A stretch of 64,000 bases of DNA from Acidimicrobiia bacterium (GTDB lineage Bacteria > Actinomycetota > Acidimicrobiia > Spongiisociales > UBA11373): the NCBI GenBank assembly GCA_046714175.1, contig JBKKBI010000084.1, positions 26,284 to 90,283 on the forward strand, read 5' to 3'. This document shows, one piece after another, positions 3,195 through 51,821 of the stretch. Every line of letters begins with the position of its first letter. Positions within the stretch are counted from its first letter, which is position 1. The translations under genes and the position numbers were made by a program. The notes under the pieces are model-generated. The model searched no databases and was not told where the DNA came from. It worked only from the letters and a program-made list of their open reading frames with translations.

Positions 3195-3243
3195 GGCGGC
3201 AGAATAACAACACTGCTGTAATTTGCTGCCGATCTGGCGGAGG

Positions 3244-3296
3244 ACGGAGACCGGAAGCCGGAGACCGGAAACCGGAAGCCGGAGACCGGAGACCGC
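3244..3296. repeat. Phased heptanucleotide tandem array of (A/G)CCGGA(G/A) units, ~7.5 copies. It lies immediately 3' of the stop of the minus-strand thioredoxin-like gene and upstream of DUF3499.
   Basis: Read directly: acggaga ccggaag ccggaga ccggaaa ccggaag ccggaga ccggaga ccg. It is flanked at 3195-3240 by an AT-rich stretch (aataacaacactgctgtaatttg) bracketed by GGCAG...CTGCC. Confidence 0.85.
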
Positions 3297-5039: not shown

Positions 5040-7786
5040 ACCGCGCCCAAGAACGCCGCCCAGGCACCGGCGGCCAGCGCCTGCATCCGCCTTCCCGGGT
5101 GGCCGCTGAAGCCGACTGTGTCACCGGCGCCGGCGATCCGGTTCGCCCACCCCGCCTGCTCCCAGGTGCCCGGACCCCAGCGATAGTCGGCGTTGACCGC
5201 CACCGTCACTGCGCCCGCGGCGCCGTCGGGGGCGGCGAAAGAGGTGCCGTCTCCGGCCCAGAGCCGTCCGTCGGGCGACATGGCGACGCCACTGGCGATC
5301 TCGTTGCGGAAGACGGGAAAGTCGAGGGAGCGGAGCGGGACCAGATCGAGTTGCGACTCAAAGACCAACTCCAGAGGGCTCGGCTCGACGAAGACCACCC
5401 ACGCGATCCCGAACTCGGCCAGACCCGCCCCGGCCCGGCGCACCTCGCCGTCGACGATCGCCCGCAGCAGAGATTCGAGCGACTCATCACCCAGCCGGGG
5501 ATCGTTGAGGTCCGCCTCCCACGACGACGGATACGGGGGAACGATCACCCGATAGCCCAGCCCGTCCAGAGTCCGCGCCTCCCCGGGCAACCGATCCACC
5601 GGTCCGAAGAGCAAGATCCGGCCCGGGGTGTCGGTGGCGGCCGCAAAGCGGAACGAGTCGCTGAAGGCGTCGGCGGGGAGACCGGCCCGCCCGGGGGCCG
5701 CCACGATCGTTGTCGCTCCCACGAGCACTACTGCAGCGACGAAGGCCGCGCGAGCACCCACACCGGCCATACCGCCCCACACCCGGCGACGCACCCCGAC
5801 CTCGAGGGCGGCACCGGCCACCACCGCCACCCCGAGCGCCACCGCGCTCAGCCCCATGACCCCTAAGGGTGCCCCGGCTCCCAGCCCGCCGGAACGGGCG
5901 GCCACGGTGCCTGTCACCGCCAGCGCCCCCCCAAATGTCGCCAGCGCGCTCAAGGTGGCATCTCCGGTGGCGCGGATTCCCACCACCGCCACGACGATCG
6001 CACCCAGCACGATCCAGCCGGGGCTCCAATAGGGCGCCGACCCCGCCGTGAGGTAGCCGATCGGGTCGGTGAACAGAATCCACGGAATGAGCATCACTGC
6101 CGCCCCCGCCGTGGCGATCCAGGCTCGCACCACACCGGGCCAGCGGGGTCCGACTCCCACCGCCGCCCACGTCGTCGCCGCCACCGCCGTGAGCGGGAGG
6201 GTCGCGGGGAAGAACATGGCTCCGATCCCGGCGAAAAGAGTCGCCCCCGCCAGCGATCGCACCGCACCCCCCCGGGCCTGCAGCGCCAGAGCCACCGCCC
6301 ACGGGACCGCGGCGATCGCGGGGAGGGCGGCCCAGTGGGTATCGCCGGCCACCGCGGCCACGGCCGGGCCGGCCATCAGCACCAGTCCCGCGAGCAGTCC
6401 CGAAGTGTTCGCCACCCCCCAGGTTCGCAGCAGCCGGCTCATCCCGAAGGCGCCGCCGGCCAAGGCACCGACTGTGATGAGAGCCACCGCCACCCCGCCC
6501 CGGCCCAGCGTCAGCACCTGCACCAGCGCCGTGGCCGCCACCGATGGTGCCAGCACCTCCGGCGATCCCAGCCCCGCGGGGTTCCAGCCACCCGCATAGG
6601 CCCGCAGCGCGGCCAGCGCGGACTCCGGTGGCGGCAGGCTGAATCCGACCACCGGCAGCCTCTCCGACCAGATCTCGCGGGCCGCGACCAATGAGAACAC
6701 GATTACGACGAACCCGACGAAGAACCCGGGATTGCGGATCCGCTGTTGGCCGGCCTCCACGGCGTCGGCGAAACCGGAGAGCACTCCTTCGGGGAAGCGG
6801 GCGCGCACCCGCGTCGCCACCTCGTCCCACAGCGCCCGTACCCGGGTCGCTCCGCTCACCTGGTAGCGGAACAGCTCCTCATCCCCCACTGCCCGCCCGC
6901 GGCGAGCTTGGAATCGCGCCTTGATCGCCGAAGGAAGATGAAACAGATTCCAGAAGCCGGCGGCGAGCACTCCGGGCAGGGCGAACCGGCCGACGAAGAT
7001 CCCGATCACGCTCTCGACGAGCCCGACCAAGAAAGCGATCGGCAATACCCACAGCAGTGTCAGCGGCGAGTACGCCTTGATCATCGCTCTGGTCTCTCCG
7101 GCCCGCTCCCTCCATCGCGGCGCTGGGTCGGAGCCCTGGTAGCGCACCACGCTGGACGGGATCACCACGATCCGGCCGCCGCGCAGACGGGCTCGTTGGC
7201 AGAAGTCGACCGCCGCCGAGGTCGGTGGCATGATCGGATCGACCCCACCCAAGCCGCGGAACAGGTCGCGCCGGATCAACATTGACGTGTCGGCGACCGC
7301 GGCGACATCACGGATCACGTCGTACTGCGACTGATCCAATTCGCCCGCCTGGAGCCCGCTATAGGGTGCATCGAACACGTCGGTGGCGTAGCCGACCGAC
7401 ACCAGAACTTCGGGATCCCCGGCATCCACCACCTTCGAGCCGGCCACCGAGGCGTCGACGCGCACACCATCAGTCACGAGCGCCGCGAGAGCTCCGGGAT
7501 CCGGCCGCGCTCGCTGGCGCAATGCCCACACGTAGTCGAACTCGGCGTCGATGGCGTCGTAGACCGCACCGAGGTGGGGGCGCCACATCGCCTCGCGCGC
7601 GGTGGCCACCCGCCGGACCTCCTCATTCCCGCCCACGACGATCACCCGGGCCGGGCCATACACTTGCCGGCCTACTGCGTCGAGGCAGGGAACCAGGAGG
7701 TCGGCGTCGTCCGCGCTGATGACCGCCACCACCCGGGGCGCGGCAGGACGGGGGGCTGCGGGTTCGGTGGACATGCGGGCCGCCAT
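5003..7786 (-). CDS. Glycosyltransferase family 2 catalytic domain fused to a large polytopic membrane domain (927 aa)
   Basis: The N-terminus VVAVISADDADLLVPCLDAV...DFCQRARLRGGRIVVIPSSVVRY is a GT2 fold, followed by >15 hydrophobic helices. It sits divergently 17 nt from cofD. Confidence 0.75.
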   Translation of the reverse strand: MAARMSTEPAAPRPAAPRVVAVISADDADLLVPCLDAVGRQVYGPARVIVVGGNEEVRRVATAREAMWRPHLGAVYDAIDAEFDYVWALRQRARPDPGALAALVTDGVRVDASVAGSKVVDAGDPEVLVSVGYATDVFDAPYSGLQAGELDQSQYDVIRDVAAVADTSMLIRRDLFRGLGGVDPIMPPTSAAVDFCQRARLRGGRIVVIPSSVVRYQGSDPAPRWRERAGETRAMIKAYSPLTLLWVLPIAFLVGLVESVIGIFVGRFALPGVLAAGFWNLFHLPSAIKARFQARRGRAVGDEELFRYQVSGATRVRALWDEVATRVRARFPEGVLSGFADAVEAGQQRIRNPGFFVGFVVIVFSLVAAREIWSERLPVVGFSLPPPESALAALRAYAGGWNPAGLGSPEVLAPSVAATALVQVLTLGRGGVAVALITVGALAGGAFGMSRLLRTWGVANTSGLLAGLVLMAGPAVAAVAGDTHWAALPAIAAVPWAVALALQARGGAVRSLAGATLFAGIGAMFFPATLPLTAVAATTWAAVGVGPRWPGVVRAWIATAGAAVMLIPWILFTDPIGYLTAGSAPYWSPGWIVLGAIVVAVVGIRATGDATLSALATFGGALAVTGTVAARSGGLGAGAPLGVMGLSAVALGVAVVAGAALEVGVRRRVWGGMAGVGARAAFVAAVVLVGATTIVAAPGRAGLPADAFSDSFRFAAATDTPGRILLFGPVDRLPGEARTLDGLGYRVIVPPYPSSWEADLNDPRLGDESLESLLRAIVDGEVRRAGAGLAEFGIAWVVFVEPSPLELVFESQLDLVPLRSLDFPVFRNEIASGVAMSPDGRLWAGDGTSFAAPDGAAGAVTVAVNADYRWGPGTWEQAGWANRIAGAGDTVGFSGHPGRRMQALAAGAWAAFLGAVCLVARPRRSRS

Positions 7787-7803
7787 TCTACGGAGGGCAC
7801 TGG

Positions 7804-8724
7804 ATGACGAAGGTGACGGTCCTCGCCGGCGGGGTGGGAGGCGCTCGCGGGGCCCGCGGCTTCGATACCGTCCTCGGCCCGAACGCGCTGACCGTGGTCG
7901 TAAATGTCGGGGACGACGACCGCATCCACGGCGTGCATGTTTCCGCAGATGTGGACACGGTCCTGTACACCCTGGCCGATCGCGAGGGTCCGCAGGGATG
8001 GGGACTCGCCGGAGACACCTTTCATGTCATGGAGCAGCTTGCCGCCGCCGGTGAGGACACCACCTTCCGACTCGGCGACATCGACCTCGCGCTATGCATG
8101 GAGCGCACCCGGGCCCTGGATTCCGGGGAACCACTCTCCGCGATCGTGGCTCGCATCGCCACCGTCCTCGGAATCAGCCGTAGGGTGCTCCCGGTGACCG
8201 ATGACGCCTTGCGCACCCGGATCGAGACCGCCACCGGGGAGTGGCTCGACTTTCAGGAGTACTTCGTGATCCGCGGACACCGCGACCGGGTCGCCGCGGT
8301 CGAATACACCGGCGCGGCACTCACCATTCCCGCCCCCGGGGTGCTCGAGTCGATCGCCGCAGCCGACCTGATCGTGATCGCTCCGTCCAATCCGCCGCTT
8401 TCGGTATGGCCGATCCTCGCCGTGCCCGGAGTGCGGGGTGCGGTGGCGGCGGCTCCCCGGGTGTTGGCCATCAGCCCTCTTTTCGCCGGGGTGGCGCTCA
8501 AGGGTCCGGCGCACACCGTCATGGCTTCGCTCGGGCTCCCCGAAGGGAACGCCGGCGTGCTGGCCGCCTACCGAGGCCTCATCACCGACCTGGTGATCGA
8601 CAATGGCGACCGTGCCGATGCCGCTCTGGGCGGCGACGTGTCGGTGCACGTCACCGACACCCGGATCCATCGCCGCCACGAGTCCGCCCGGCTGGCGGAT
8701 TTCATCCTCGAGTTGGCGGCATGA
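7804..8724 (+). CDS. cofD: 2-phospho-L-lactate transferase CofD/FbiA (coenzyme F420 biosynthesis)
   Basis: MTKVTVLAGGVGGARGARG... is the CofD/LPPG:Fo transferase signature. Its stop overlaps the cofE start (ATGA). Confidence 0.85.
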   Translation: MTKVTVLAGGVGGARGARGFDTVLGPNALTVVVNVGDDDRIHGVHVSADVDTVLYTLADREGPQGWGLAGDTFHVMEQLAAAGEDTTFRLGDIDLALCMERTRALDSGEPLSAIVARIATVLGISRRVLPVTDDALRTRIETATGEWLDFQEYFVIRGHRDRVAAVEYTGAALTIPAPGVLESIAAADLIVIAPSNPPLSVWPILAVPGVRGAVAAAPRVLAISPLFAGVALKGPAHTVMASLGLPEGNAGVLAAYRGLITDLVIDNGDRADAALGGDVSVHVTDTRIHRRHESARLADFILELAA

Positions 8725-9434
8725 GCACCGCCGTCACGATCTTCCCCTTGCCGGGGATTCCCGAGATCGCCGTCGGCGATGACCTGCCGGCATTGCTGCT
8801 GGCGGCGATGCAGCGGGCCGGATGCTCCCCGACCCCCGGCGATGTGCTGGTCGTGACCCACAAGGTGGTCTCCAAAGCTGAGGGGGCAGTCGTAACCCTC
8901 GAGGGGGAGGACGAGGAACTCGCCTACCGGAACCTGGTGTTGAGCGAAGCGAGGGACGTGATCCGGCGCCGCGGTGACCTCGTGATCGCCCGCACCAAGC
9001 ACGGGTTCATTTGCGCCAACGCCGGTATCGATCGTTCCAACGCCGCCCCGGGGACTGCGGTCCTGCTCCCCCACGATCCCGATCGCTCGGCGCATGGGAT
9101 TCGCCTGGCGATCCGCGCCGCCACCGGCGTGGATCTCGCCGTGATCATTTCCGATACCTTCGGCCGCCCCTGGCGCCGGGGACTGACCGATGTCGCCATC
9201 GGCGTGTCGGGGATGCTCCCGATTCACGATCTGCGTGGCACGGTCGACGCCACCGGGCGAGAGTTGCACGTGACCGAAGTCGCGGTGGCCGACGAGATCG
9301 CCGCCGCCGCCGACCTGGTGATGGGAAAGGCTGCGGCGATCCCGGCGGCATTGGTGCGCGGAGTGGTGGTGCCAGCCGGTGAGGGGCGGGCAGCGGACCT
9401 GGTGCGGCCGGACGCGGAAGACTTGTTCAGGTAG
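8721..9434 (+). CDS. cofE: Coenzyme F420-0:L-glutamate ligase CofE (FbiB N-terminal-type, no nitroreductase domain)
   Basis: The ATG at 8721 overlaps the cofD stop. The product (237 aa) carries CofE family motifs (HKVVSKAEG, ICANAGID). The listed ORF from 8241 is an upstream in-frame extension that runs across cofD. Confidence 0.8.
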   Translation: MSTAVTIFPLPGIPEIAVGDDLPALLLAAMQRAGCSPTPGDVLVVTHKVVSKAEGAVVTLEGEDEELAYRNLVLSEARDVIRRRGDLVIARTKHGFICANAGIDRSNAAPGTAVLLPHDPDRSAHGIRLAIRAATGVDLAVIISDTFGRPWRRGLTDVAIGVSGMLPIHDLRGTVDATGRELHVTEVAVADEIAAAADLVMGKAAAIPAALVRGVVVPAGEGRAADLVRPDAEDLFR

Positions 9435-9517
9435 GGGCGAGGGGCGAGGGGCGAGGGGATGACAGATGGCAGATGGCAGATGGCAGATGGCGAGGGGCGA
9501 GAGGCTAGGGGCCCCGG
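9434..9517. repeat. Phased heptanucleotide tandem array, 12 units: GGGGCGA x3, GGGGATG, ACAGATG, GCAGATG x3, GCGAGGG, GCGAGAG, GCTAGGG. It begins on the last base of the cofE stop TAG.
   Basis: Read directly. All units share one 7-nt phase. The same unit types recur at 18498-18532. Confidence 0.9.
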
Positions 9518-9535
9518 TTAACTGAAGACTCTCCC

Positions 9536-10420
9536 ATGCCCGAACTCCCCGACATCGTCGTCTACCTGGAGAGGCTGCAGGCCCTGGTCGGCGAAGGGCC
9601 GCTTCTTGGCATCCGCTTGGGCAGCCCCTGGGTGTTGCGCACCGTGGATCCCCCGATCGAGTCCGTGGCCGGCAAGAAGGTGATCGGTTACCGGCGGATC
9701 GGCAAGCGGCTGGTGTTCGCCCTCGAGGACGACCTCTTCGTCGTGATCCACCTGATGATCGCGGGGAGGATGCGGATGCGGGCTCCCGGGACCGCGATCC
9801 CGCCCAAGCGCGGGTTGGCCGCACTCGACTTCCCGGCCGCAACCTTCTTGCTCACTGAAGAGGGAACCCAAAAGCGCGCCAGTGTCCACGTGGTGCGGGG
9901 GACGGCGGCGCTCGCTGAGCACGATCGCGGCGGCCTGGAACCCTACGCCATGACCGCGGCGGAGATGGGGGCGGCGCTGCGCCGGGGGCGCCACACCTTG
10001 AAGCGAGCCCTCACCGACCCCCGCGCCTTCTCCGGGATCGGAGGGGCCTACTCCGACGAGATCATGCATCGCGCCCGACTGTCGCCGATGGTCCTCACCG
10101 ACAAGCTCACCGACGACGACGTCGGCCGACTCCACGCGGCCACCACGGCGGTGCTCACCGAGTGGACCGAACGGCTTCGCGCGGAAGTCGGCGACGGTTT
10201 TCCGGAGAAGGTCACCGCCTTCCACGAGGCGATGGCAGTGCATGGCCGGTTCGGACAGCCATGTCCAGTGTGCCGGGCGCCGGTGCAGCGCATCGTCTAC
10301 GCCAGCAACGAGACCAACTACTGCCCGGGATGTCAGAACGGCGGGAGGATCCTGGCGGATCGGGCGCTGAGCCGGCTGCTCAAGGACGACTTTCCGCGCC
10401 GGCTGGAAGATCTGGAGTAG
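9536..10420 (+). CDS. Fpg/Nei family DNA glycosylase (formamidopyrimidine-DNA glycosylase / endonuclease VIII-like)
   Basis: N-terminal MPELPD catalytic Pro2/Glu3 and a C-terminal zinc finger (CPVCRAPV...YCPGCQ). Confidence 0.8.
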   Translation: MPELPDIVVYLERLQALVGEGPLLGIRLGSPWVLRTVDPPIESVAGKKVIGYRRIGKRLVFALEDDLFVVIHLMIAGRMRMRAPGTAIPPKRGLAALDFPAATFLLTEEGTQKRASVHVVRGTAALAEHDRGGLEPYAMTAAEMGAALRRGRHTLKRALTDPRAFSGIGGAYSDEIMHRARLSPMVLTDKLTDDDVGRLHAATTAVLTEWTERLRAEVGDGFPEKVTAFHEAMAVHGRFGQPCPVCRAPVQRIVYASNETNYCPGCQNGGRILADRALSRLLKDDFPRRLEDLE

Positions 10421-10456
10421 GCACTAGCCAACGGGCAACGTTCCTGCGGGAAGCGG

Positions 10457-11392
10457 TCAGCCCTTGCGCGCCCACTCGATCGTCTTCTTGAGGCCGGTGC
10501 GCAAATCGGTCCAGGCTTCCCAGGCGAGTTCCTTCTTGGCTCGGGCCGGATCGACCACCGAGCGGAGCACCTCGCCGGGTTTGGGAGCGACATGATCGGC
10601 ACGGGTGGCGTAGCCGATGAGGTCGGCCATCGTCTCGTACAAGGTGTTGATCGAGGTCTCGATGCCGGTGCCGACATTCATGAAGAGCCCATCACCGGCA
10701 TCGGCGGCGCGCGCAAAGGCATCGCAGACATCCCCCACATATACGAAGTCGCGGGTCTGGCGGCCGTCACCAAAAATCACCGGACGGCGTCCCTGCAGCA
10801 TCGCAGTGGCAAAGATCGCCACCACGCCGCCCTCGAGGGAGGCATCCTGCCGCGGTCCATACACGTTGGCCAGGGCGAGCAGCGAGTACTCCAGACCCGC
10901 CGATTCGCGATACCAGCGGAAGTAGTCCTCGACGATCTTCTTGGAGATCCCATACGGCGACGCCGGACTCTTCGCCGCGGTCTCCTTGGCCGGGACCTTC
11001 ACCCCGTCGCCGTAGACGGCTCCACCCGAGGAGGCGAAGCACACCTTGCGGGCGCCGGCGCGTTGCGCGGCGGCGAGCACATTCAAAGTGCCGAGCACAT
11101 TGACTTCGGCGTCGTGCATCGGGTCATCCACCGAGGGACGCACCTTGGACTGGGCGGCGAGGTGATACACCACCTCAGGACGGAAGCGATCAAAGATGTC
11201 TCCCAGTTCCGGAGCGCGCACGTCGGTGACGTGAACTCCCGCCACCTGCTTGCGCGCCGCGCCGAGGTTTTCCAGTTTGCCGGAACTGAGGTCGTCGACG
11301 ACGAGCACCTCCCAGTCGCGATCGAGCAGCACCTCGGTGAGGTGGCTGCCGATGAATCCGGCTCCTCCGGTGACTACGGCCTTGCGTGTCAT
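10457..11392 (-). CDS. NAD-dependent epimerase/dehydratase (UDP-glucose 4-epimerase-like)
   Basis: Rossmann GGAGFIGSH motif and YGISK catalytic motif, 311 aa. Confidence 0.8.
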   Translation of the reverse strand: MTRKAVVTGGAGFIGSHLTEVLLDRDWEVLVVDDLSSGKLENLGAARKQVAGVHVTDVRAPELGDIFDRFRPEVVYHLAAQSKVRPSVDDPMHDAEVNVLGTLNVLAAAQRAGARKVCFASSGGAVYGDGVKVPAKETAAKSPASPYGISKKIVEDYFRWYRESAGLEYSLLALANVYGPRQDASLEGGVVAIFATAMLQGRRPVIFGDGRQTRDFVYVGDVCDAFARAADAGDGLFMNVGTGIETSINTLYETMADLIGYATRADHVAPKPGEVLRSVVDPARAKKELAWEAWTDLRTGLKKTIEWARKG

Positions 11393-11399
11393 GGTCTCC

Positions 11400-12461
11400 T
11401 CATCCCGGCGGCGAAAAGGTCACAGTTCCCGCATCCAGCTCAGCACCCGGACCGATCCGAACCCCGTGGTCGAGCTCACATCCCGCACCGATCCGCGCCC
11501 CAGGGCCGACCACCGCCGCGCCGGTGACCGTGGCGCCGGCACCGATCACAGCCCGCTGCCCCACCACCGCCCGTCGCACCACGGCTCCGGACTCGATCCT
11601 GGCGCCCGACATCACCACGGCCTCGGCGACGGTGGCATCGGCAGCGACCTCCGCTCCGGGCCCAATCCAGGACCATGCCCCGGTCCCCACGCCCGCGGCG
11701 CCGCCAGCCGTGTGCGAGGTAGGGGGACGATGCAGCAGCGAGGCGCCCGCATACACGGCGTCGTGAGCGGCGAGATAGAGCGTCGGGGTCCCGATGTCGA
11801 GCCAATGTCCCTGCACGAGCACTGCGGCCAGACGACGGGAGGCGGCGAGATCTGGAAACACGACTCGCTCGAACGAGAGTGGGCCGAGTGGATACCCCGC
11901 GAGCACCTCCCGGGTCAGGGAATACATGCCGGCATTGACAGTGCGCGCCGGCGCGGAGTGCGTCGGTGGCTTCTCGATGAAGCGTTCCACCAACCCCGAG
12001 GGGTCGGCCACGACCACCCCGTAGGGACTGGTGTCAGCGACCTCGATCAATCCGAGCGTGGCCGGGGCGGTGGCAGCAATCAGAGCCGCGAGATTGGCTT
12101 CGATTACCACGTCGCCGTTGAGCACGAGGAACCTCGGGTCGAGGCGGTCGAGGATCGCCCGCACCGGTCCGGCGGTGTCTAGGGGCTCGTCCTCGATGGC
12201 GAGGTGCACCTCGATGCCTGCCGGGGACGTGGTGGAGTAAGCGTCCCATTGTTCGCGATGCCACCGGCCCATGGCGAGAAAGACTTCGGCCACCCCGAGG
12301 CGCGCCAGCTGGCGCAATTGGTATTCGACGAACGGAACGCCGGCCAGGGGAAGCAGACCTTTGGGGGTCTCGGCGGTGAGTGGCCACATCCGGGTCCCCC
12401 GGCCCCCGACGAGCAGAACCGCCTGGCGGATCGAGGTGTCGGGGTTATCCAGAGGGGGCAT
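11400..12461 (-). CDS. manC: Mannose-1-phosphate guanylyltransferase-like sugar nucleotidyltransferase with C-terminal left-handed beta-helix
   Basis: LLVGGRGTRMWPLT... nucleotidyltransferase signature plus hexapeptide repeats. Its position next to the LCP gene matches Rv3264c/Rv3267 synteny. Confidence 0.75.
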   Translation of the reverse strand: MPPLDNPDTSIRQAVLLVGGRGTRMWPLTAETPKGLLPLAGVPFVEYQLRQLARLGVAEVFLAMGRWHREQWDAYSTTSPAGIEVHLAIEDEPLDTAGPVRAILDRLDPRFLVLNGDVVIEANLAALIAATAPATLGLIEVADTSPYGVVVADPSGLVERFIEKPPTHSAPARTVNAGMYSLTREVLAGYPLGPLSFERVVFPDLAASRRLAAVLVQGHWLDIGTPTLYLAAHDAVYAGASLLHRPPTSHTAGGAAGVGTGAWSWIGPGAEVAADATVAEAVVMSGARIESGAVVRRAVVGQRAVIGAGATVTGAAVVGPGARIGAGCELDHGVRIGPGAELDAGTVTFSPPG

Positions 12462-13734
12462 CGGCCCCGACGATAACCACCACCTCCACGTCGATCGGAG
12501 TACGGCCCACGATCACCTCGCCGTACCCCAAGGCGTCCCGCACCGCCTCGGCCAGGGCCAGATTGGCCGCGCCGGCCACTATCTCGGTGACCGGGTAGTC
12601 GTCGCGCGCCGAATCGCGGGTGTCCACCACCTCGAAGCCAGCGGCGGTCAGCACCGCCGCTACCTCTCTGGCCGAACCTGCAATGCCGTTGCCGTTCTGC
12701 ACCTCGATGCGTGCTTCTGCGTCGACGGTCATCGTGGTGCCGTTGGCGAAGGCGTCGATCACGTTCGATGCATCCGGTTCAACGCGGACTACATATGCCG
12801 CGCCGCCCTCGCTGGAGGACCGCACCGGAAGAGTCATCGACTCCACATCGCCGCCGCTGATGCTGCGCATCGACCAAGCCAGATCGATGATCTCCTCGGC
12901 GTCGAAACCGCTGTCCACCGTGACGAACCCGCCCAGGGCGTCGAGGAGGCTGTGGAAGCCGGCGATCGAGTTGGGCCGGTCCACCTGGGTGAGAATCGCC
13001 AGCAGCACGTCCTGCTGGCGGCGCGTCCGCCCGATGTCATTGGCATCGACACTGACCCATTCCCCGTCGCGCAGCTCCTGATACTTGCGGCTGCGCGCAT
13101 AGGAGAGCGCAGTGTCACCATCGAGCAGCTGGGTTCCGGCACCGACATCCAGACCGGAGGAGAGATCGCGGGCGGGATAGGGAAAGGTGATGCGGATGCC
13201 GCCGATGGCGTCGATGATCGAGGCGAACCCGCCAAACTCGACCTCGAGATAGTGGTGGATGGGCAGGCCCGTCTCCGCGGCCACCGCTGCCACCAGGTCG
13301 GAGGGCCCGTCGGCAAAGGTGGCGTTGATTCGTCCGGTGCGTCCTCCGTACTGGATCTTCAGATCGCGCGGAATCGACAGGAGCTGCATCCGCCCGTCGT
13401 CGGGGTCCACCCGGGCGAGAATGATCACATCGGCACGCTGGCCGCCCGCGGGACCGAAGTTGGTCAGATCGTCGAGGTTCTCCCGGCTGTCGCTGCCCAC
13501 GAGGAGGAACGTTCGCGGGTCGGAAGGTTCCGGCGTATCGGGAAGACTCAGATCGGGCACGGTGGAGACCGCCGACTCCACCTGATTGGCGGCCCACCAC
13601 ACCGCGCCCAGCGCGCCGAAGACGACCAGGTTGGCGGTCACGAGGAAACCGACGATGACACGCTTCATCCCGCGGCGGCGCGGAGGGGTCGTCGGAGAGG
13701 AAGGAGGGACGCGGGGATGGGAGGGCATCGTCAT
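12445..13734 (-). CDS. LytR-CpsA-Psr (LCP) family cell-wall glycopolymer ligase with C-terminal LytR_C domain
   Basis: An N-terminal TM anchor, the LCP core (LLVGSDSRE...ADVIILARVD...LLSIPRDL) and a C-terminal LytR_C-like domain. Confidence 0.8.
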   Translation of the reverse strand: MTMPSHPRVPPSSPTTPPRRRGMKRVIVGFLVTANLVVFGALGAVWWAANQVESAVSTVPDLSLPDTPEPSDPRTFLLVGSDSRENLDDLTNFGPAGGQRADVIILARVDPDDGRMQLLSIPRDLKIQYGGRTGRINATFADGPSDLVAAVAAETGLPIHHYLEVEFGGFASIIDAIGGIRITFPYPARDLSSGLDVGAGTQLLDGDTALSYARSRKYQELRDGEWVSVDANDIGRTRRQQDVLLAILTQVDRPNSIAGFHSLLDALGGFVTVDSGFDAEEIIDLAWSMRSISGGDVESMTLPVRSSSEGGAAYVVRVEPDASNVIDAFANGTTMTVDAEARIEVQNGNGIAGSAREVAAVLTAAGFEVVDTRDSARDDYPVTEIVAGAANLALAEAVRDALGYGEVIVGRTPIDVEVVVIVGADAPSG

Positions 13735-13782
13735 GGCGGGAAGGCGGTTATAGCATCGGATGGGCGCTGAGAAGAAGCCCGA

Positions 13783-14325
13783 TCAGGCTGCCGCCGCATC
13801 GCCAAGCTGGCGATCGAGGAACCCGATGATGCGTCGCAGGGCATCCGCGGCCGCCACCGGGTGATATCCGACGGCGGAGTCATCCCAAAAACCTCTGGAG
13901 ACACCCCGATAGGTCACCCGCCGGCCGCCGCCGCCACCACCCCCGCCTTCGCCCCCGGTCAGGGTGAGGACGGCCACCTCCGGTGGGATCAAGGGAGCTA
14001 CGTCGGGATCGAGGAGCACCAGTGCGAGCCCACGCTCCATGGCAACTGCGGCGGCCTCCGCCGCCCCGGCGCCGACCCCGATCACGGCCCGGCGGTCACG
14101 GCGCGACCAGTCCGACCAGGCATCGCCGAGGGCGTCGACCGCGGCCGCGAGGTGACGGGCGCCCCCCGGAGGGACGACGACCGCGTATCCGTATCGGGCC
14201 AGCGCCCGCGCCAGGGTGCGCGCCGCCGGGGTGATCTCGCCCCCAACCGCGAGGGCCACTGCGGGATGGGCCGAGACCGTGTCGGGTCGCGCCAGGTACC
14301 CGTCCCGGTGGGGAGGAACCGCCAT
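13783..14325 (-). CDS. Dienelactone hydrolase family protein (short form)
   Basis: The region ...LARPD...HPAVALAVGGEITP..LARYGYAVVVP... matches the DLH N-terminal region and TYRGVSRGFWDD the DLH C-terminus. The long Arg-rich N-terminal extension of the listed ORF is rejected. A GTG at 14352 is an alternative start. Confidence 0.5.
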   Translation of the reverse strand: MAVPPHRDGYLARPDTVSAHPAVALAVGGEITPAARTLARALARYGYAVVVPPGGARHLAAAVDALGDAWSDWSRRDRRAVIGVGAGAAEAAAVAMERGLALVLLDPDVAPLIPPEVAVLTLTGGEGGGGGGGGRRVTYRGVSRGFWDDSAVGYHPVAAADALRRIIGFLDRQLGDAAAA

Positions 14326-14396
14326 CGCCTGATTGCCGTACAGGATCGAAACCCTGCCCTCACCCGGGATCACGCTCAAGACACACCTCCGGCGCT

Positions 14397-15089
14397 TCAG
14401 GGTAGCCCGGGGTACCCGTGGTCTCGTACCGTGCGCACCGCGCCGGAGTCGATCACGACTTCGCCAATGGAGGTGGCGACGAGAAGTCCACCGGCGGTGG
14501 TGATGTCGCGCGCGGTACCCGAACCGCTCGGCTCCCAGGTGATCGTCCTCCCCAAGGTCACGCTGCGGGAGCGGTACTCGTCGCGCCCCCAGGCGTCCGG
14601 TCCCGCCGCCACCCGGTCGAGGAGACGGCGCGCCCAGGAAGTGGCGACGCGGCGGGCCGCGCCGCGACCGGGATCGCGGCCGCCCAGCGCACCGATACCG
14701 TCTGCTGCCTCCGGCCAAAACAGATTTACCCCGAGGCCGCACACCACCACTCCGTCGCGATGCTCGGTCAAGATTCCCCCCAGCTTGGCTCGACCGCGCA
14801 TCAGGTCGTTCGGCCACTTCAGGCCGATGTCGTCCCCGAGAATCTCGGCGGCGGCCAGACCGGCGACGAGGGTCAGCCGCGCCAGGGCACCCTCAGGCCA
14901 CTCCGGCCGCCAGGCCAGCGAGGCAGCGACCGCTCGCGGCGCCGTCTGCCATGCCGAGCCGCTCCGCCCCCTCCCGGCGCGCTGTACCGCCGCGGTCACC
15001 AACACCGGTGCGACGCGGAATCGGGACCGCGCTTCGTCCTGTGTCGAATCGACGACGTCGAGATGAAACACCCTCAGGGGTGTAGCCAT
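14397..15089 (-). CDS. birA: Biotin--[acetyl-CoA-carboxylase] ligase BirA
   Basis: FHLDVVDSTQDEA...GRGRSGSAW...KWPNDL motifs. It lies adjacent to accD5/accA3, as in mycobacteria. Confidence 0.8.
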   Translation of the reverse strand: MATPLRVFHLDVVDSTQDEARSRFRVAPVLVTAAVQRAGRGRSGSAWQTAPRAVAASLAWRPEWPEGALARLTLVAGLAAAEILGDDIGLKWPNDLMRGRAKLGGILTEHRDGVVVCGLGVNLFWPEAADGIGALGGRDPGRGAARRVATSWARRLLDRVAAGPDAWGRDEYRSRSVTLGRTITWEPSGSGTARDITTAGGLLVATSIGEVVIDSGAVRTVRDHGYPGLP

Positions 15090-15184
15090 CGGGGCCCTCC
15101 GGGGAGTCGAACCTAGGCCGATCAAGGCGATCCGGGCCGGCGGCGTGACCGCGCGGTGACCGACCGACCATACTCCGGGGAGCC

Positions 15185-16735
15185 ATGAGCACCGAGGAGC
15201 AAATCGAACGCTTGCGCCGACTCCGCGAGGAGCACGAGCACGCCGGCAGCCAGCGGGCGGTCGACAAGCAGCACGAGGCGGGGAAGATGACCGCCCGCGA
15301 ACGGATCGACACCTTGCTCGACAAGGGTTCGTTCGTCGAGATGGACATGTTCGTGCGCCACCGCGCCCGAGGGTTCGGCATCGAAGATCGCCGCCCGCCC
15401 GGCGACGCGGTCATCACCGGGTGGGGCACCGTGGACGGCCGCCCGGTCTTTGTGTTTGCTGAGGACTTCACGGTATTCGGGGGATCGCTCGGGGAGGCGG
15501 TGAGCGAGAAGGTTTGCAAGGTCATGGACCTGGCGATGAAGACCGGGGCGCCACTGGTCGGGCTCAAGGACTCCGGCGGAGCGCGCATTCAGGAGGGTGT
15601 GTTCGCCCTTGACGGCTACGGGCGCATCTTCCACCGCAACGTCATGGCCTCGGGAGTGATCCCGCAGATCTCGGTGATCATGGGTCCCTGCGCCGGCGGT
15701 GCGGTCTACTCCCCGGCAATCACCGACTTCGTCTACCAGGTCGAGGGGACCTCGCACCTCTTCATCACCGGCCCGGACGTGATCAAGGCAGTCACCGGCG
15801 AGGACGTGACCTTCGACACCCTGGGTGGAGCCGGACCCCACAGCACGATCTCTGGTGTGACCCATTTCGTCGCCCCCGACGGCCGACAAGCGCTGGAGGA
15901 GGTGCGCTATCTCCTCTCGTTCTTGCCGCAAAACAACATGGAAGCGCCGCCTTTCTTCACCCCCACCGATCGGCCCGATCGCATGGAGGAGGGCCTGACC
16001 ACCATCGTGCCCGACTCCCCCAACCAGCCCTACGACATGGCGGAACTGATCGAGTTCGTGGTCGACGACGGCGAGTTCTATCAGGTGCACCAGCACTTCG
16101 CCCCCAATCTTGCCGTGGGCTTTGGGCGGCTCGATGGCTACACCGTCGGCATCGTCGCCAACAACCCGGCGGCGCTGGCGGGAACCCTCGACATCGATGC
16201 GTCGGTGAAGGGTGCCCGCTTCGTCCGTTTCTGTGACGCCTTCAACATCCCGATCGTGTCGTTCGTCGACGTCCCCGGATTCCTTCCGGGAGTCGATCAG
16301 GAACACGGCGGCATCATCCGCCACGGCGCCAAGCTGCTGTACGCCTATTGCGAGGCGACCGTGCCCCGGGTCACAGTCATCACCCGCAAGGCATACGGCG
16401 GTGCGTACGTCGTCATGAACTCGCGGAGCGTCGGGGCGGACATCGCCTTCGCCTGGCCGACGGCCGAGATCGCGGTCATGGGTGCGCAAGGGGCGGTGAA
16501 CATCATCCACCGCCGCGAGATCACCGACGCCCCCGATCCAGATGCCACTCGCTCCAAGCTCATCGACGACTATGAGCGGGCCTTCTCCAATCCCTACGTG
16601 GCCGCAGAGCGCGGGCTCATCGACGAGGTCATCGAACCGCGCGAGACCCGGCAAAGGTTGATCCAAACCCTGGATGTGCTGCGGACGAAGCGGGTGTCGC
16701 TTCCTCCCAAGAAGCACGGAAACATCCCTCTCTAG
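15185..16735 (+). CDS. accD5: Acyl-CoA carboxylase carboxyltransferase beta subunit (propionyl-CoA carboxylase beta, AccD5/PccB-like)
   Basis: A 516-aa carboxyltransferase with high similarity, from memory, to PccB/AccD5 (MTARERIDTLLD..., GGAYVVM...). It is followed 10 nt later by the biotin carboxylase gene. Confidence 0.9.
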   Translation: MSTEEQIERLRRLREEHEHAGSQRAVDKQHEAGKMTARERIDTLLDKGSFVEMDMFVRHRARGFGIEDRRPPGDAVITGWGTVDGRPVFVFAEDFTVFGGSLGEAVSEKVCKVMDLAMKTGAPLVGLKDSGGARIQEGVFALDGYGRIFHRNVMASGVIPQISVIMGPCAGGAVYSPAITDFVYQVEGTSHLFITGPDVIKAVTGEDVTFDTLGGAGPHSTISGVTHFVAPDGRQALEEVRYLLSFLPQNNMEAPPFFTPTDRPDRMEEGLTTIVPDSPNQPYDMAELIEFVVDDGEFYQVHQHFAPNLAVGFGRLDGYTVGIVANNPAALAGTLDIDASVKGARFVRFCDAFNIPIVSFVDVPGFLPGVDQEHGGIIRHGAKLLYAYCEATVPRVTVITRKAYGGAYVVMNSRSVGADIAFAWPTAEIAVMGAQGAVNIIHRREITDAPDPDATRSKLIDDYERAFSNPYVAAERGLIDEVIEPRETRQRLIQTLDVLRTKRVSLPPKKHGNIPL

Positions 16736-16745
16736 GATGCCCGCC

Positions 16746-18497
16746 ATGGACTCCGTCCTCGTGGCCAACCGCGGCGAGATCGCGGTGCGGGTGATCCGAG
16801 GGGCCAAGGAGATGGGGCTACGCACCATCGCGGTGTACTCCGAGCTGGATCGCGATGCGGCTCATGTGCGGGCTGCTGATGAAGCTTGGAACATAGGACC
16901 CGCCCCGGCGGCCCAGTCGTACCTCGACATCGACAGCCTGTTGCGTGCCGCCGTACAGGCCAAGGCTGCCGCCATTCACCCCGGTTACGGATTCCTCGCC
17001 GAGAACGCGGGCTTCGCCCGCCGCGTCATCGAAGCCGGGCTGATCTGGGTCGGGCCCTCCCCCGAGGCGATCACCGCCATGGGCGACAAGATCTCGTCCC
17101 GGCGGATGGCGGAGAAGGCCGGCGTCGCCGGAGTCCCCGGCACTCTGGAACCGCTGGCGACGGTGGCCGCAGTGGAGGCGGTGGCGGAGCGTTTCGGCTA
17201 TCCGATCGCCATCAAGGCAGCCCATGGTGGTGGTGGCAAGGGCTTGCGGGTCGTGCACGAAAGGGCCGGGGTCGAGGCTGGCTTCGAGGCGGCGCAACGC
17301 GAAGCCGACGCCTATTTCAAGAACCCCGAGGTCTACGTTGAGAAGTACCTCGAGCGTCCGCGCCACATCGAAGCCCAGATCATCGTGGATCGCTATGGCA
17401 CCGGAGTCTTCCTCGGCGAACGCGATTGCAGCCTGCAACGCCGCCACCAGAAACTGATCGAGGAGTCTCCTTCGACCGCGATCGGCGACCGGCAGCGCAA
17501 GGCCCTGGGCAAGTCTGCTCTCGCCGTGGCCAAGGCTGCGGGATACGAGAACGCCGGGACGGTCGAGTTCCTGCTCGATGCGTCGGGTGACATCTACTTC
17601 CTCGAGATGAACACCAGGCTCCAGGTCGAGCACACCGTGACCGAGATGGTCACCGGCATCGACCTGGTGCGCGAACAGTTCCGGGTGGCTATGGGCGAGC
17701 CGTTGTCGTTCTCGGAGGTTTCGCCCCGGGGACATGCGATCGAATTCCGCATCAATGCCGAGGATCCGGCGAACGGGTTCTTGCCCAGCCCAGGACAGAT
17801 TTCTGAGTACTCCGAGCCCGGAGGCTTCGGCGTCCGCGTCGACAGCGGGTACGGGGCGGGTTCGGCGATCAGCCAGTACTACGACAATCTCGTCGCCAAA
17901 CTGATCGTGTGGGGACGGGACCGCGATGAGGCGATCTCCCGCTCCCGCCGAGCCTTGCGCGAGTTCGTAGTCGGAGGCATCGCCACCACGATCCCGTTCC
18001 ATCTCGCCGCCCTGGAGTCACCGGCCTTTCTCGCCGGAGAGCATCACACCCGCACCGTCGAGTCGGAGATGGACCTCTCTGGTCTGACCCAGCCCACCGG
18101 TCCCCCACTTCCCGAGGAAGAGGAACTCGCGGAGCGCCAGCTCACCGTCGAGGTCGGGGGACGCCGATTCGTGGTTCGGGTGTGGGCTCCGGAGACCGGA
18201 CCGGCACCGGCGGCGTCGGGCCGGCGCGCCGCGCCGCGGCGCCGCCCCCCCAAACTCGCCCAGGCACCGTCAGCAGGTTCCACCTCCGGCGCAGTCACCG
18301 CCCCGATGCAGGGAACGATCGTCAAGGTGCATCACAAGGCGGGAGAGCGAGTGGCCGCCGGAGATCCGCTGTTCATACTCGAAGCGATGAAGATGGAAAA
18401 TGAAGTGCGCTCCCCCGTCGACGGCGAGATCGTGGATCTCCGGGTGCAGCCCGGGGACCGGGTCGCCAGCGGGGCCGTGCTGGCGATCGTGAGGTAG
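16746..18497 (+). CDS. accA3: Acetyl/propionyl-CoA carboxylase alpha subunit (biotin carboxylase + BCCP, AccA3-like)
   Basis: The internal ATG at 16746 (MDSVLVANRGEIAVRVIR) is preceded by AGGA. It has ATP-grasp motifs and a C-terminal biotinyl-Lys motif EAMKMEN. Confidence 0.9.
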   Translation: MDSVLVANRGEIAVRVIRGAKEMGLRTIAVYSELDRDAAHVRAADEAWNIGPAPAAQSYLDIDSLLRAAVQAKAAAIHPGYGFLAENAGFARRVIEAGLIWVGPSPEAITAMGDKISSRRMAEKAGVAGVPGTLEPLATVAAVEAVAERFGYPIAIKAAHGGGGKGLRVVHERAGVEAGFEAAQREADAYFKNPEVYVEKYLERPRHIEAQIIVDRYGTGVFLGERDCSLQRRHQKLIEESPSTAIGDRQRKALGKSALAVAKAAGYENAGTVEFLLDASGDIYFLEMNTRLQVEHTVTEMVTGIDLVREQFRVAMGEPLSFSEVSPRGHAIEFRINAEDPANGFLPSPGQISEYSEPGGFGVRVDSGYGAGSAISQYYDNLVAKLIVWGRDRDEAISRSRRALREFVVGGIATTIPFHLAALESPAFLAGEHHTRTVESEMDLSGLTQPTGPPLPEEEELAERQLTVEVGGRRFVVRVWAPETGPAPAASGRRAAPRRRPPKLAQAPSAGSTSGAVTAPMQGTIVKVHHKAGERVAAGDPLFILEAMKMENEVRSPVDGEIVDLRVQPGDRVASGAVLAIVR

Positions 18498-18532
18498 GCA
18501 GATAGGGGCGAGGGGCGAGGGGCGAGGGGGTC
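18498..18532. repeat. Phased heptanucleotide array GCAGATA, GGGGCGA x3, GGGGGTC, starting directly after the accA3 stop TAG and reaching the stop of the convergent DMT gene
   Basis: Read directly. It has the same unit types as the 9434-9517 array. Confidence 0.85.
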
Positions 18533-19361
18533 ACCCAAGGGCGATCAGCACCACCGCGACGGCTGCCAGCACCAAGCCGACCCACTGTCTTCGGACCACG
18601 CGTTCCCCTAGCACCACCCGGGCGAGCGCGATCGTCGTCGCCGGGTAGAGAGACATGATCACAGCCACCAGGGACAGCAGTTCGCGACGGACCGCCAGCA
18701 GGAACAAGACGTTGCCGGCGGTGTCGAGCAGCGCCGATGTCGCGATCATCGACCAGGTGCTGCGCGCCGCCAGCAGCGGACGCCCCATCAACAGCACCAA
18801 GGTGCCCAGGAGCACCACCGATGAGAGGCGCGCCGCCACCAGCGGCCACATTCCGGTGTCGGAGCCGCTGCGAGAGATGAGGATGCCGAACAGCGCAAAG
18901 GCGGCTCCGGCAAGGGCACCGAGCCACGCCGCCCGCAATGCCGGGCCGGAGTCGGGGCGTCCCACGGAGAGCAGGACCACCGCCGGGGCGGCCAGCACCA
19001 TGCCCAGCCACGCGATCGCTTCGGGACGCTCCCCGATGAAGATCCCGAACAGCACCGGCAGAACCGTGCCCACCACGGCCGCCACCGGCGCCGCCACCGA
19101 GATCCGCGTGGTGGCCAGAGCGTGATACAGGAGTACCAGACCGATCGAGGCGGCGATGCCGCCGCCCGCCCCCCACAGCAGCCCGCCCCCCACTGCAAAG
19201 CCGGAACCGAACGCGGGGGCGATAGCAGTCACCGCCACCATTCCCACCACCTGCGCCCCCCACACCACCGTTACCGCCGGAGCCCGTCGGGTGGCGAGAC
19301 CGCCGACAAAGTCCGCTACTCCGAAGACGAGGCTGGACAATCCGGCGAGGAGCAGCGGCAT
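18531..19361 (-). CDS. DMT (EamA-like) family transporter
   Basis: A 276-aa protein with ~10 hydrophobic helices and an EamA-like duplication. Confidence 0.65.
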   Translation of the reverse strand: MPLLLAGLSSLVFGVADFVGGLATRRAPAVTVVWGAQVVGMVAVTAIAPAFGSGFAVGGGLLWGAGGGIAASIGLVLLYHALATTRISVAAPVAAVVGTVLPVLFGIFIGERPEAIAWLGMVLAAPAVVLLSVGRPDSGPALRAAWLGALAGAAFALFGILISRSGSDTGMWPLVAARLSSVVLLGTLVLLMGRPLLAARSTWSMIATSALLDTAGNVLFLLAVRRELLSLVAVIMSLYPATTIALARVVLGERVVRRQWVGLVLAAVAVVLIALG

Positions 19362-19399
19362 CCGGGGAGGTTAGGAAGGAGTGCGGGTCGGGAACGACT

Positions 19400-49747: not shown

Positions 49748-50683
49748 ATGCAATGGGCACTGATGACGGAACCGCACACCGGCATGAGCTACGACACCCT
49801 CCTCGCGATGGCGCAGTTCGCCGAACGGTCGGGGCTTGATGCCTTCGCTCGGTCCGATCACTTCTTCGCCGACCGCATCGACCGTCCCAATGCGACCGAC
49901 GCCTTCGCGACGCTCGCCGGGCTGGCGCGGGACACGAACCGCGTCGAACTGGTGGTGCTGGTGAGCCCCATCACATTCCGTCACCCCGGTGTGATTGCCA
50001 AGTCCGCGGCGACGATCGATGAGATGTCGGCCGGCCGGTTTGCCCTCGGCGTAGGCACCGGATGGATGGAGGCCGAGCACGTAAAGTTCGGTCTCCCCTT
50101 CCCGGCCCTGGGAGAGCGCTTCGCCCGCTTGGAGGAGTCATTCGCCTACCTGCACCACGCACTGGGCCGCGCCTCCGGTCCTTACGCCGGGGACTACTAC
50201 GCCCTCGAGAACTCCGACGTGTATCCCCGACGGCCCGGAGTCCGTCTGATCGTCGGCGGGACCGGGGAGCGGCGCACTCCCCGCCTCGCCGGGACGTACG
50301 GGGACGAGTACAACTTCACCCTTCGCCCGGAAGCCGACCCGAAAGTGCGCATTGGCCGGGTGCGGGCGGCCGCGGAACGCGCCGGACGCGATCCCGGGTC
50401 GATCACTCTCTCGGTGATGACCCAGGTCGTGACCGGGGAGACCCCGCCCGAGTTCGCCCGCAATTTGGCCCGCGTGGCGGCCGCCGATCCCTGGGGTTCC
50501 GATCCCACCACCATCGAAAAGCACCATCGCGGCCGCGGCCTCCCCATCGGCACCGGGCCCGAGGTTCGGGAGCGCATCGCCCAGATCGCCGCCCTGGGCG
50601 TCTCCCGGATCTACGTCCAGCACTTCGGTCCCTATGAGACGGACTTGCTCGAGGAGACCTTCGGAGTGTTGCGCGGCGAGTGA
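49748..50683 (+). CDS. LLM class (luciferase-like) F420-dependent oxidoreductase
   Basis: A TIM-barrel LLM family protein (FARSDHFF, LGVGTGW). Consistent with the cofD/cofE genes in the window. Confidence 0.75.
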   Translation: MQWALMTEPHTGMSYDTLLAMAQFAERSGLDAFARSDHFFADRIDRPNATDAFATLAGLARDTNRVELVVLVSPITFRHPGVIAKSAATIDEMSAGRFALGVGTGWMEAEHVKFGLPFPALGERFARLEESFAYLHHALGRASGPYAGDYYALENSDVYPRRPGVRLIVGGTGERRTPRLAGTYGDEYNFTLRPEADPKVRIGRVRAAAERAGRDPGSITLSVMTQVVTGETPPEFARNLARVAAADPWGSDPTTIEKHHRGRGLPIGTGPEVRERIAQIAALGVSRIYVQHFGPYETDLLEETFGVLRGE

Positions 50684-50823
50684 GATAACAGATAACAGAT
50701 AACAGATAACAGATAACAGATAACAGATAACAGACAGCAGGCAGCAGGCAGCAGACAGCAGACAGCAGACCAATCGATCGAGTCCGGCATCCGATATCCG
50801 GCATCCGGCATCCGATATCCGGT
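50684..50823. repeat. Phased heptanucleotide tandem array, 20 units: GATAACA x6, GACAGCA, GGCAGCA x2, GACAGCA x2, GACCAAT, CGATCGA, GTCCGGC, ATCCGAT, ATCCGGC x2, ATCCGAT, ATCCGGT, ATCCGGC. It begins directly after the TGA of the LLM gene.
   Basis: Read directly. It runs 140 nt in a single 7-nt phase and is the largest of five such loci. Confidence 0.95.
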
Positions 50824-50869
50824 ATCCGGCACTTGGGTACCACTCCGGAGCCTCTTATCCTTCCCTCCC

Positions 50870-51625: not shown

Positions 51626-51821
51626 CAAGCACCGCTCCCACCTACCCGCAAGGGGATTTCCGGTTGCCGGTTTCCAGTTGCCGGGTCTTGGCAGTGGGCG
51701 CACCTCGGCGCGGCTCTCGCCCATCTCTCGTCGGCCATCGCCACGCGTCCGGCGAGTTCTGCATTGCGCATTGTGAATGGCGCCCGGTCACTGCCATTGG
51801 ACTGTCGCGCCAGGTGGCAGC

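Follow-up and report, generated by a model that had tools for sequence, protein, structure and literature searches.

Heptanucleotide arrays of an Acidimicrobiia sub-lineage: probable simple-sequence repeats remodelled by slippage

How does one heptanucleotide, GGGGCGA, come to stand in tandem at two separate places in the same bacterial genome? Both places lie in a 64-kb stretch of an Acidimicrobiia metagenome-assembled genome (contig JBKKBI010000084.1; the whole stretch is called the window here), one directly after cofE and the other between an accA3-like gene and a convergent transporter gene. An original prediction, made by reading the letters, held that the shared units imply a common generating mechanism, such as templated insertion, a site-specific process or selection for a bound motif, rather than the independent birth of microsatellites. 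We find that the arrays of this lineage are specific to a period of 7, lie between genes, often abut stop or start codons, and are inherited at orthologous sites while their units drift. The two focal loci are probably heptanucleotide simple-sequence repeats (SSRs) of the type described as short tandemly repeated repetitive (STRR) sequences or long SSRs (LSSRs). They would belong to a genome-wide population that fills free intergenic spacer in one Acidimicrobiia sub-lineage and is remodelled by slippage.

Both focal arrays begin at the stop codon of the preceding gene. The first base of locus 1 is the third base of the cofE stop codon (TAG, 9432-9434), and the locus spans 84 nt (9434-9517). 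It reads as 12 heptamers in one phase: GGGGCGA x3, GGGGATG, ACAGATG, GCAGATG x3, GCGAGGG, GCGAGAG, GCTAGGG and GCCCCGG. Tandem Repeats Finder (TRF) splits it in three, at 9433-9458 (3.7 copies, 100%), 9458-9491 (4.9 copies, 96%) and 9489-9512 (3.4 copies, 82%). The GCAGATG unit of the middle part is one mismatch from a CAGCTG-type family that dominates in relatives at this site, and the units from 9490 onwards are decaying GGGGCGA in a shifted register. At locus 2, the accA3-like stop codon (TAG, 18495-18497) is followed by GCAGATA (18498-18504), GGGGCGA x3 (18505-18525) and GGGGG (18526-18530); directly after it, the minus-strand EamA/DMT gene has its stop codon, as TCA at 18531-18533. Heptamer-phase sequence fills the 33-nt convergent gap completely, as had been claimed, with its end at 18530 and not 2 nt further on at 18532. 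The gene names also hold: cofE matches TIGR01916, its 237-aa product being 100% identical to database protein P0001, and the accA3-like product fuses biotin carboxylase and BCCP domains. What the two loci share is only the array and about 4 flanking bases (31 nt, 2 mismatches).

The recurrence of GGGGCGA exceeds chance. Its dimer, GGGGCGAGGGGCGA, occurs four times in the window, always inside the two focal loci, against 0.22 expected, and none of 100 shuffles reaches four. The heptamer GCAGATR, counted by itself, is no commoner than chance predicts (11 observed, 12.4 expected), and locus 2 has one copy of it, not a tandem. The "shuffled order" of two types was therefore an overstatement; only the position of GCAGATA beside the locus 2 array is suggestive. 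Over the 64 kb covered by the unit-recurrence count, two exact unit matches link different loci among about 12 sub-arrays, where about 0.06 would be expected by our estimate from some 1,170 strand-symmetric heptamer necklaces. We regard chance similarity, or an assembly artefact of a metagenome-assembled genome, as almost certainly the wrong explanation. The ordinary frequency of GCAGATR would suit it, and some contigs do end in arrays, so repeats can disturb assembly. Against it stand the excess of the dimer and of inter-locus matches, and arrays at orthologous sites in independent assemblies from different samples effectively refute it.

The two focal loci are members of a larger population in the window. 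With arrays of at least 3 copies counted, the window (GC about 67%) holds six at period 7, two at period 6 and none at periods 8-12, and period 7 is the sole period of 6 or more with over two arrays. The window's six heptamer loci are intergenic, all its arrays sit between open reading frames (ORFs), and at four of the six loci the array starts 0-2 nt from the upstream stop codon. Two units recur exactly between loci, GGGGCGA (9433, 18504) and ATCCGGC (24910, 50796), and two looser families recur as well, CC[A/G]GTTN (24883, 51657) and RCAGAYR (9458, 18498, 50683). A lack of further loci with shared units, which the original prediction had named as a sign of chance similarity, is therefore not what the window shows.

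Relatives carry arrays at the same intergenic sites, mostly built from different units. We compared the window with relatives, that is, syntenic contigs anchored on cofE and sufC (designated by L-numbers). Downstream of cofE, where the window has GGGGCGA and GCAGATG, contigs L004, L205 and L207 have CAGCC and CAGCT-type units, L206 has GAAGAGC and TGAGAGC, and L001 keeps only a 24-nt remnant. Upstream of the DUF3499 gene, CGGAGAC in the window (3238..3295) corresponds to GCCAGTT in L004 and to about 230 nt of heptamers in L207. This long array drifts stepwise from GCCAGAG through GCCAGAT and GCCGGAT to GCCGGGT, and then continues as CGGGCAG and CGGGCGA. Closer relatives keep some units in the spacer from the luciferase-like gene to sufC (ACAGCAG in the window and L212; ATCCGGC in the window and L208), and the CGGGCGA family occurs at non-orthologous sites in L207 and L209. 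L004 has no repeat in its 10-nt spacer at the accA3/EamA junction. Either the window's lineage gained the second array, or L004 lost one. A general absence of arrays from orthologous sites, the other outcome that would have pointed to coincidence, is not observed; unit identity at those sites is kept in part among closer relatives and is mostly replaced elsewhere.

Heptamer arrays mark a sub-lineage and not the class. Arrays of at least 3 copies number 6 in 64 kb in the window, 9 in 35 kb among relatives with 84-85% cofE identity and 2 in 37 kb at 70-78%. Among cofE-anchored Acidimicrobiia there were none in 130 kb at 60-69% identity and none in 599 kb below 60%. Of the exact runs in the 184-kb clade set, 46 have period 7 and 6 have period 6; periods 8-12 have none. 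The densest case is L211 (1-20702), far above the window: 13 of its 16 spacers of at least 15 nt contain arrays, 7-8 of them of the CAGCTGN family, and all its arrays lie in spacers between called genes. In the same contig, an 18-nt convergent gap (20396-20413) consists wholly of CAGCTGA TAGCTGA CAGC, mirroring locus 2 of the window.

An array-free sister genome separates the trait from base composition. In 20.7 kb of the complete genome CP129495.1 there is no array, although its SufC is 82% identical, its gene order is the same and its GC content is 68.6%. The luciferase-to-sufC and sufC-to-sufS spacers are 56 and 34 nt long in CP129495.1; in relatives with arrays they measure 111-186 nt. The trait thus belongs to a sub-lineage and does not follow from GC content. 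We rejected GC content as the cause on this ground and because array-free relatives as a whole span 59-73% GC.

Relatives also show features of individual array sites beyond unit content. A conserved segment (CTTGGGTA..., then TATCCTC / TTATCCT; 50832-50869 in the window) lies about 8-15 nt upstream of the sufC start. It is found in all relatives (L208, L211, L212, L287), including the array-free CP129495.1, arrays occur only upstream of it in the spacer, and it holds an anti-Shine-Dalgarno-like CCTC, not GGAGG. In L209, sufC is bracketed by eleven TAACGGG / CGACGGG units upstream (9876-9953) and by the reverse-complement TACCCGT / TGCCCGT downstream (10767-10793), about 800 nt apart. L001 has two additional genes between cofE and fpg (5457-8953), encoding a 990-aa Kelch-repeat protein and an ECF-type sigma factor, and its arrays stayed beside fpg.

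Near-identical relatives directly reveal whole-unit gain and loss. L001 and L002 are 99.8% identical, with 23 single-nucleotide polymorphisms (SNPs) in 15.4 kb, and their sole internal indel is one AGGCACC unit. L212, L213 and L214, one species from three metagenomes, differ by 58-69 SNPs per pair; their only multi-base internal indels are the presence or absence of ACAGCAG and of CTGCAAT, both within arrays, and elsewhere there is one 1-nt indel. These are three independent exact 7-nt indels between near-identical contigs. Together with the graded unit variants in long arrays, they fit slipped-strand dynamics combined with point mutation, and nothing points to the templated insertion or site-specific process first suggested. 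A common generating mechanism survives in part: the sharing of units is not due to chance and the process acts at many loci, and that process shows microsatellite-type dynamics instead of being an alternative to them.

Slippage offers a stepwise account of both focal loci. Slipped-strand mispairing during replication or repair would create and remodel the arrays, with slippage by 7 nt strongly favoured in this lineage. A point mutation within a unit could then be amplified by more slippage, yielding compound arrays such as GGGGCGA / GCAGATG / GCGAGGG. GGGGCGA would appear at two loci by way of a restricted repertoire of well-expanding units, among which it seems widely favoured, and not by copying of one locus into the other. 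Its G4N3 spacing might also matter, since a G-quadruplex would stabilise slipped intermediates or be tolerated at the 3' ends of genes.

A dedicated enzyme system that writes heptamers is the more exotic alternative. It might consist of a polymerase or reverse transcriptase that copies a template, or of a mobile element leaving 7-bp target-duplication footprints. It would account for the strict period of 7, for a trait that is on or off between sister lineages of equal GC content and synteny, for patchy spread across phyla that includes viral contigs, and for identical units at non-orthologous loci. One template or target fits poorly with units this diverse that change gradually by single bases within arrays, and the mutations observed are simple one-unit indels. 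The clade arrays are flanked by no target duplication and share no conserved non-tandem core of the kind that miniature inverted-repeat transposable elements (MITEs) or repetitive extragenic palindromic (REP) sequences have; the base before an array merely continues the unit. No candidate gene was identified, and Rfam gave no match in the whole window at its gathering score. We consider a writing system improbable, and slippage-driven SSR dynamics are better supported than insertion from a template or at specific sites.

GGGGCGA arrays extend far beyond this lineage. A scan of a genome collection found three tandem copies of GGGGCGA in at least 120 stretches from many phyla. Planctomycetota, Lentisphaeria, Caldilineae, Gemmatimonadales, Flavobacteriales, Halomonas, Blastocatellia, Streptomyces and others are among the matches listed. 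Apart from these, the listed stretches (841 kb) hold 111 exact arrays of period 7, built from 66 different units; period 6 accounts for 5 arrays and period 8 for 4. Genomes with GGGGCGA arrays are therefore generally heptamer-prone. Many of the listed arrays begin at a stop codon, many are compound, and some have an inverted partner array. None of 120 loci from other phyla in these 841 kb pairs GGGGCGA with a CAGAT-type unit, and we rejected a universal pairing of the two on that basis. A TA or target-site-duplication signature before GGGGCGA arrays was likewise rejected: A stands before the array in 112 of 130 cases, where it continues a degenerate unit.

Some of these distant occurrences have features of their own. 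In viral contigs, tripled units of composition G5C1A1 number 28 for GGGGCGA, 16 for GGGGAGC, 13 for GGGGGCA, 6 for GGGCGGA and 0 for GGCGGGA; the commonest of those tested are the ones with an unbroken run of 4-5 G. In the Lentisphaeria metagenome-assembled genome JBMNFR01 (L007-L009, L027, L054, L066, L092-L095, L118), GGGGCGA arrays lie inside a larger recurring composite element present in dozens of copies. This element combines conserved non-repeat segments (for example GTTGAGCTTGGATTACGTTGTCC and GGGGCTTTTTTTA) with GAATGCT and CATAATT heptamer arrays, and it looks like an interspersed element partly made of heptamers.

G-rich units raise the possibility that the arrays are selected structures at gene ends. 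In this alternative, G-quadruplexes or heptamer hairpins would serve as transcription terminators, 3'-end stabilisers or insulators that separate adjacent or convergent genes, and slippage would be merely how they vary. Both focal loci read GGGG-CGA-GGGG-CGA-GGGG-CGA-GGGG, with at least 4 G-tracts (G of at least 3) and short loops. No other motif in the window has four runs of at least 4 G, and each of the two has exactly four such tracts. ViennaRNA, run with and without its G-quadruplex option, gives -33.1 versus -3.9 kcal/mol at locus 1 and -39.1 versus -7.9 kcal/mol at locus 2, a predicted gain of about 30 kcal/mol; the focal arrays are accordingly predicted to form G-quadruplexes. Such a role agrees with the placement of arrays, which lie 0-2 nt from a stop codon at four of the six window loci and do so at numerous loci of other phyla. 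Canonical U-tailed terminators occur at chance level in 9000-19500, which makes another terminator type plausible. Heptamer repeats of Xanthomonas and Nostoc are reported to share this placement and to favour four units (Rehm et al. 2015, PMC4692102).

Hairpins are the second possible structure, and they are confined to some sites. Among 32 clade array regions the median fold z is -0.64, and 8 fall below -2. Downstream of fpg, between convergent genes, two relatives have inverted complementary pairs of arrays, at 9975-10075 in L001 and 10463-10580 in L004. The L001 pair joins CAGGTGT x5 with CACCTGA x4 (z = -6.9 to -8.2), and the L004 pair joins CGACAGC / CAACAGC x10 with GTGAGCT x4 (z = -2.7 to -4.1). 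The focal arrays themselves have no hairpin (z = +0.83 and +0.37), and neither shows a terminator-like site, meaning a GC-rich stem-loop followed by a T-run; we rejected a hairpin or terminator function for them. Palindromic cores also proved unsupported as the property that makes a unit expandable: 4-bp cores occur in 13 of 31 units (0.39 expected, p = 0.43) and 6-bp cores in 5 of 31 (0.115 expected, p = 0.28).

Several observations make a general structural role an unlikely explanation. Only a quarter of the array regions fold more stably than z = -2, and most units are neither G-rich nor significantly palindromic. Arrays in the window have no consistent orientation with respect to transcription. 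Syntenic relatives lack arrays at the same sites, as L004 does at accA3/EamA and CP129495.1 throughout the compared region, and Rehm et al. (2015, PMC4692102) found no regulatory function for their repeats.

Selection for a bound motif is a very improbable source of the recurrence. It would make the arrays multimeric binding sites for a putative lineage-specific DNA- or RNA-binding protein that reads heptamers, with units recurring because they must match that protein. Unit families common to several loci per genome, the patchy and lineage-limited distribution, and the adjacency of arrays to start and stop codons are what such a protein would produce, and MacGregor (2015, PMC4679880) proposed the same for TAACTGA repeats. 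A single reader is hard to reconcile with many unrelated units per genome, at least 12 variants in the window and 31 canonical units in the clade set. At orthologous sites the units are replaced entirely, strains differ freely in copy number, and the flanking genes are unrelated housekeeping genes.

Slippage-driven SSR dynamics, our preferred explanation, faces its own difficulties. Slippage alone explains neither the period of 7, nor presence and absence between sister lineages of equal GC content, nor identical units at non-orthologous loci. The unit indels come from relatives, and none from the window's own two loci. The proposed G-quadruplex link consists of a prediction and modest counts. 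A peak at four G-tracts (25, 45, 21 and 17 arrays with 3, 4, 5 and 6 tracts) was judged uninformative as a sign of G-quadruplex selection, because arrays of 3 to 4 units plus a partial last unit give this shape anyway. The inverted-pair architecture persists at the orthologous site downstream of fpg despite differing sequences, which suggests that hairpins are selected or that some mechanism produces inverted copies. All these points weigh against slippage as the full account.

A trans-acting factor could supply what slippage lacks. Heptamer-proneness might be a discrete heritable trait conferred by a variant form of a replicative or repair polymerase, by a helicase or a nuclease, or by a mobile-element enzyme generating 7-nt duplications. 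This sub-clade and scattered lineages in other phyla would possess the factor, and the syntenic sisters of equal GC content would lack it. We hold this proposal to be doubtful. If it were true, the arrays would be traces left by an activity dedicated to duplicating 7 nt, not by generic slippage, and the presence/absence contrast within Acidimicrobiia would let phylogenetic profiling identify the factor.

The arrays resemble heptamer repeats already described in other bacteria. STRR1-3 are CCCCAGT, TTGGTCA and CAACAGT, and the window's units are unrelated to these. In their organisation, as it is cited in PMC4692102, the cyanobacterial STRRs (Mazel et al. 1990) are close to our arrays: head-to-tail intergenic heptamers, several unit types per genome, units at many loci and compound arrays. 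The host here differs in being a high-GC member of the Acidimicrobiia with GC-rich units and a local density reaching that of L211. Heptanucleotides were the most abundant class of LSSR5-11 (units of 5-11 nt) in many genomes surveyed by Mrazek, Guo and Shah (2007), and an origin by slippage related to the polymerase footprint was proposed there (both as described in PMC4679880 and PMC4692102). Long SSRs occurred in free-living, phylogenetically scattered bacteria, with three Actinobacteria among the top ten (as described in PMC4679880). Heptamer dominance, period-7 excess, intergenic bias, unit recurrence and, in relatives, whole-unit polymorphism are all found in our arrays. The 2007 survey predates Acidimicrobiia metagenome-assembled genomes and, as later papers describe it, contains neither a within-class presence/absence comparison nor population-level 7-nt indels for the group.

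The G-rich units have a close parallel in Xanthomonas GGGAATC and Nostoc GGGGAYT (Rehm et al. 2015, PMC4692102). There too, a G-tract and a 3-4 nt loop make a 7-nt unit, about four units are typical, and repeats are strongly biased to intergenic positions 0-50 nt from the upstream stop codon, with some inverted pairs. The same gene pair keeps its repeat in relatives while length and sequence vary. The present arrays differ in the unit, GGGGCGA, for which a G-quadruplex is predicted, and G-rich units are a minority among the heptamers of this lineage. TAACTGA repeats of Beggiatoaceae, Cyanobacteria and Bacteroidetes (MacGregor 2015, PMC4679880) are also direct intergenic heptamers, patchy across phyla and often abutting coding sequences. 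Those genomes have essentially one unit, mostly just upstream of start codons, whereas here there are many units, mostly starting from stop codons. The window's CAGTTAC unit (24883-24904) is one mismatch from the TAACTGA reverse complement in rotation (CAGTTAT).

Phase-variation contingency loci share only the mode of change. Their copy number also shifts by slipped-strand mispairing, but they lie in promoters or 5' coding regions of surface or virulence genes of host-adapted pathogens and switch expression. The present lineage is environmental, and its arrays come after housekeeping genes (cofE, acyl-CoA carboxylase, sufC). We rejected the focal arrays as contingency loci: they follow the stop codons of cofE and the acyl-CoA carboxylase gene, and one fills a convergent gap.

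Table 1. Heptamer arrays of the window and genes next to the focal loci (window coordinates)
Feature	Position	Strand	Remark
(CGGAGAC / CGGAAGC / CGGAAAC) x about 8, between two minus-strand genes	3238..3295	+	TRF
cofE, F420-0:gamma-glutamyl ligase	8721..9434	+	NCBIfam TIGR01916; ends ...AGG TAG
(GGGGCGA)x3 + GGGG	9434..9458	+	four G4 tracts, 3-nt loops
(GATGGCA)x4.9, in phase ACAGATG then GCAGATG x3	9458..9491	+	TRF
Degenerate GCGAGGG / GCGAGAG / GCTAGGG / GCCCCGG units	9490..9517	+	TRF 82% matches
fpg/nei-type DNA glycosylase, downstream of array 1	9536..10420	+	
AGCCAAC GGGCAAC, probable decayed remnant; relatives have large inverted heptamer array pairs at this site	10421..10456	+	
accA3-like acyl-CoA carboxylase alpha subunit (biotin carboxylase + BCCP fusion)	16674..18497	+	ends ...AGG TAG
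GCAGATA (single copy) + (GGGGCGA)x3 + GGGGG	18498..18530	+	TRF 3.7 copies, 100%
EamA/DMT-family transporter, convergent with accA3	18531..19361	-	L004 orthologue has Pfam EamA
CAGTTAC x2, CGGTTGC, CAGTTAG, then GCATCCG x2; 1 nt past PBP gene stop codon	24883..24925	+	TRF
(AGATAAC)x7.4 then (CAGACAG / CAGGCAG)x5.7; begins on TGA of luciferase-like monooxygenase gene	50683..50772	+	TRF
(TCCGGCA / TCCGATA)x6.7, upstream of sufC	50783..50831	+	TRF
TTTCCGG TTGCCGG TTTCCAG TTGCCGG, between sufC and sufS; CC[A/G]GTTN family, as at 24883	51657..51684	+	TRF

The genes before both GGGGCGA arrays end in the same two codons. AGG TAG closes cofE (9429-9434) and the accA3-like gene (18492-18497); AGG makes up 5.5% of the window's Arg codons, and the counterparts in relatives end in CGG or CGC before the stop codon. 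The probability of the shared AGG, calculated post hoc, is about 0.003, and the sequence pattern of the arrays may have extended into the last codons at synonymous positions.

Two other repeats in the window are coding. Period-3/12/24/48 repeats at 27580-27850 (ACCACCACCACG...) encode a poly-Thr/Pro linker in a 719-aa ORF (26241-28400, plus strand) and are ordinary low-complexity coding sequence, unrelated to the heptamers. A period-15 repeat at 40844-40892 (GCGGCTCGGCTGGCT x3.3) lies within a minus-strand ORF (39732-41222) beside 2-oxoacid dehydrogenase E1 and E3 genes, and it probably encodes a Pro/Ala-rich linker of an E2 subunit.

Heptamer arrays have practical consequences for reading these genomes. 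They lengthen intergenic regions and could pass for regulatory motifs. Contigs L207 (10705-10742), L015, L024, L039, L044, L050, L107 and L111 end within a heptamer array, so the repeats appear to break short-read assemblies.

This clade gives an old observation an unusually clean setting. Over-representation of heptanucleotides in scattered bacterial lineages has been known since 1990, and neither the cause of the 7-nt period nor a function is established. Our literature search found no paper linking Acidimicrobiia to heptamer repeats, no explanation of the period and no mechanistic explanation later than 2015. Here, array-rich genomes, in which most spacers can be built of heptamers, stand against syntenic sisters of equal GC content that have no arrays, and 7-nt indels at the population level are visible in public metagenomes. 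The contrast between array-rich and array-free genomes makes the cause of the trait testable by comparative genomics.

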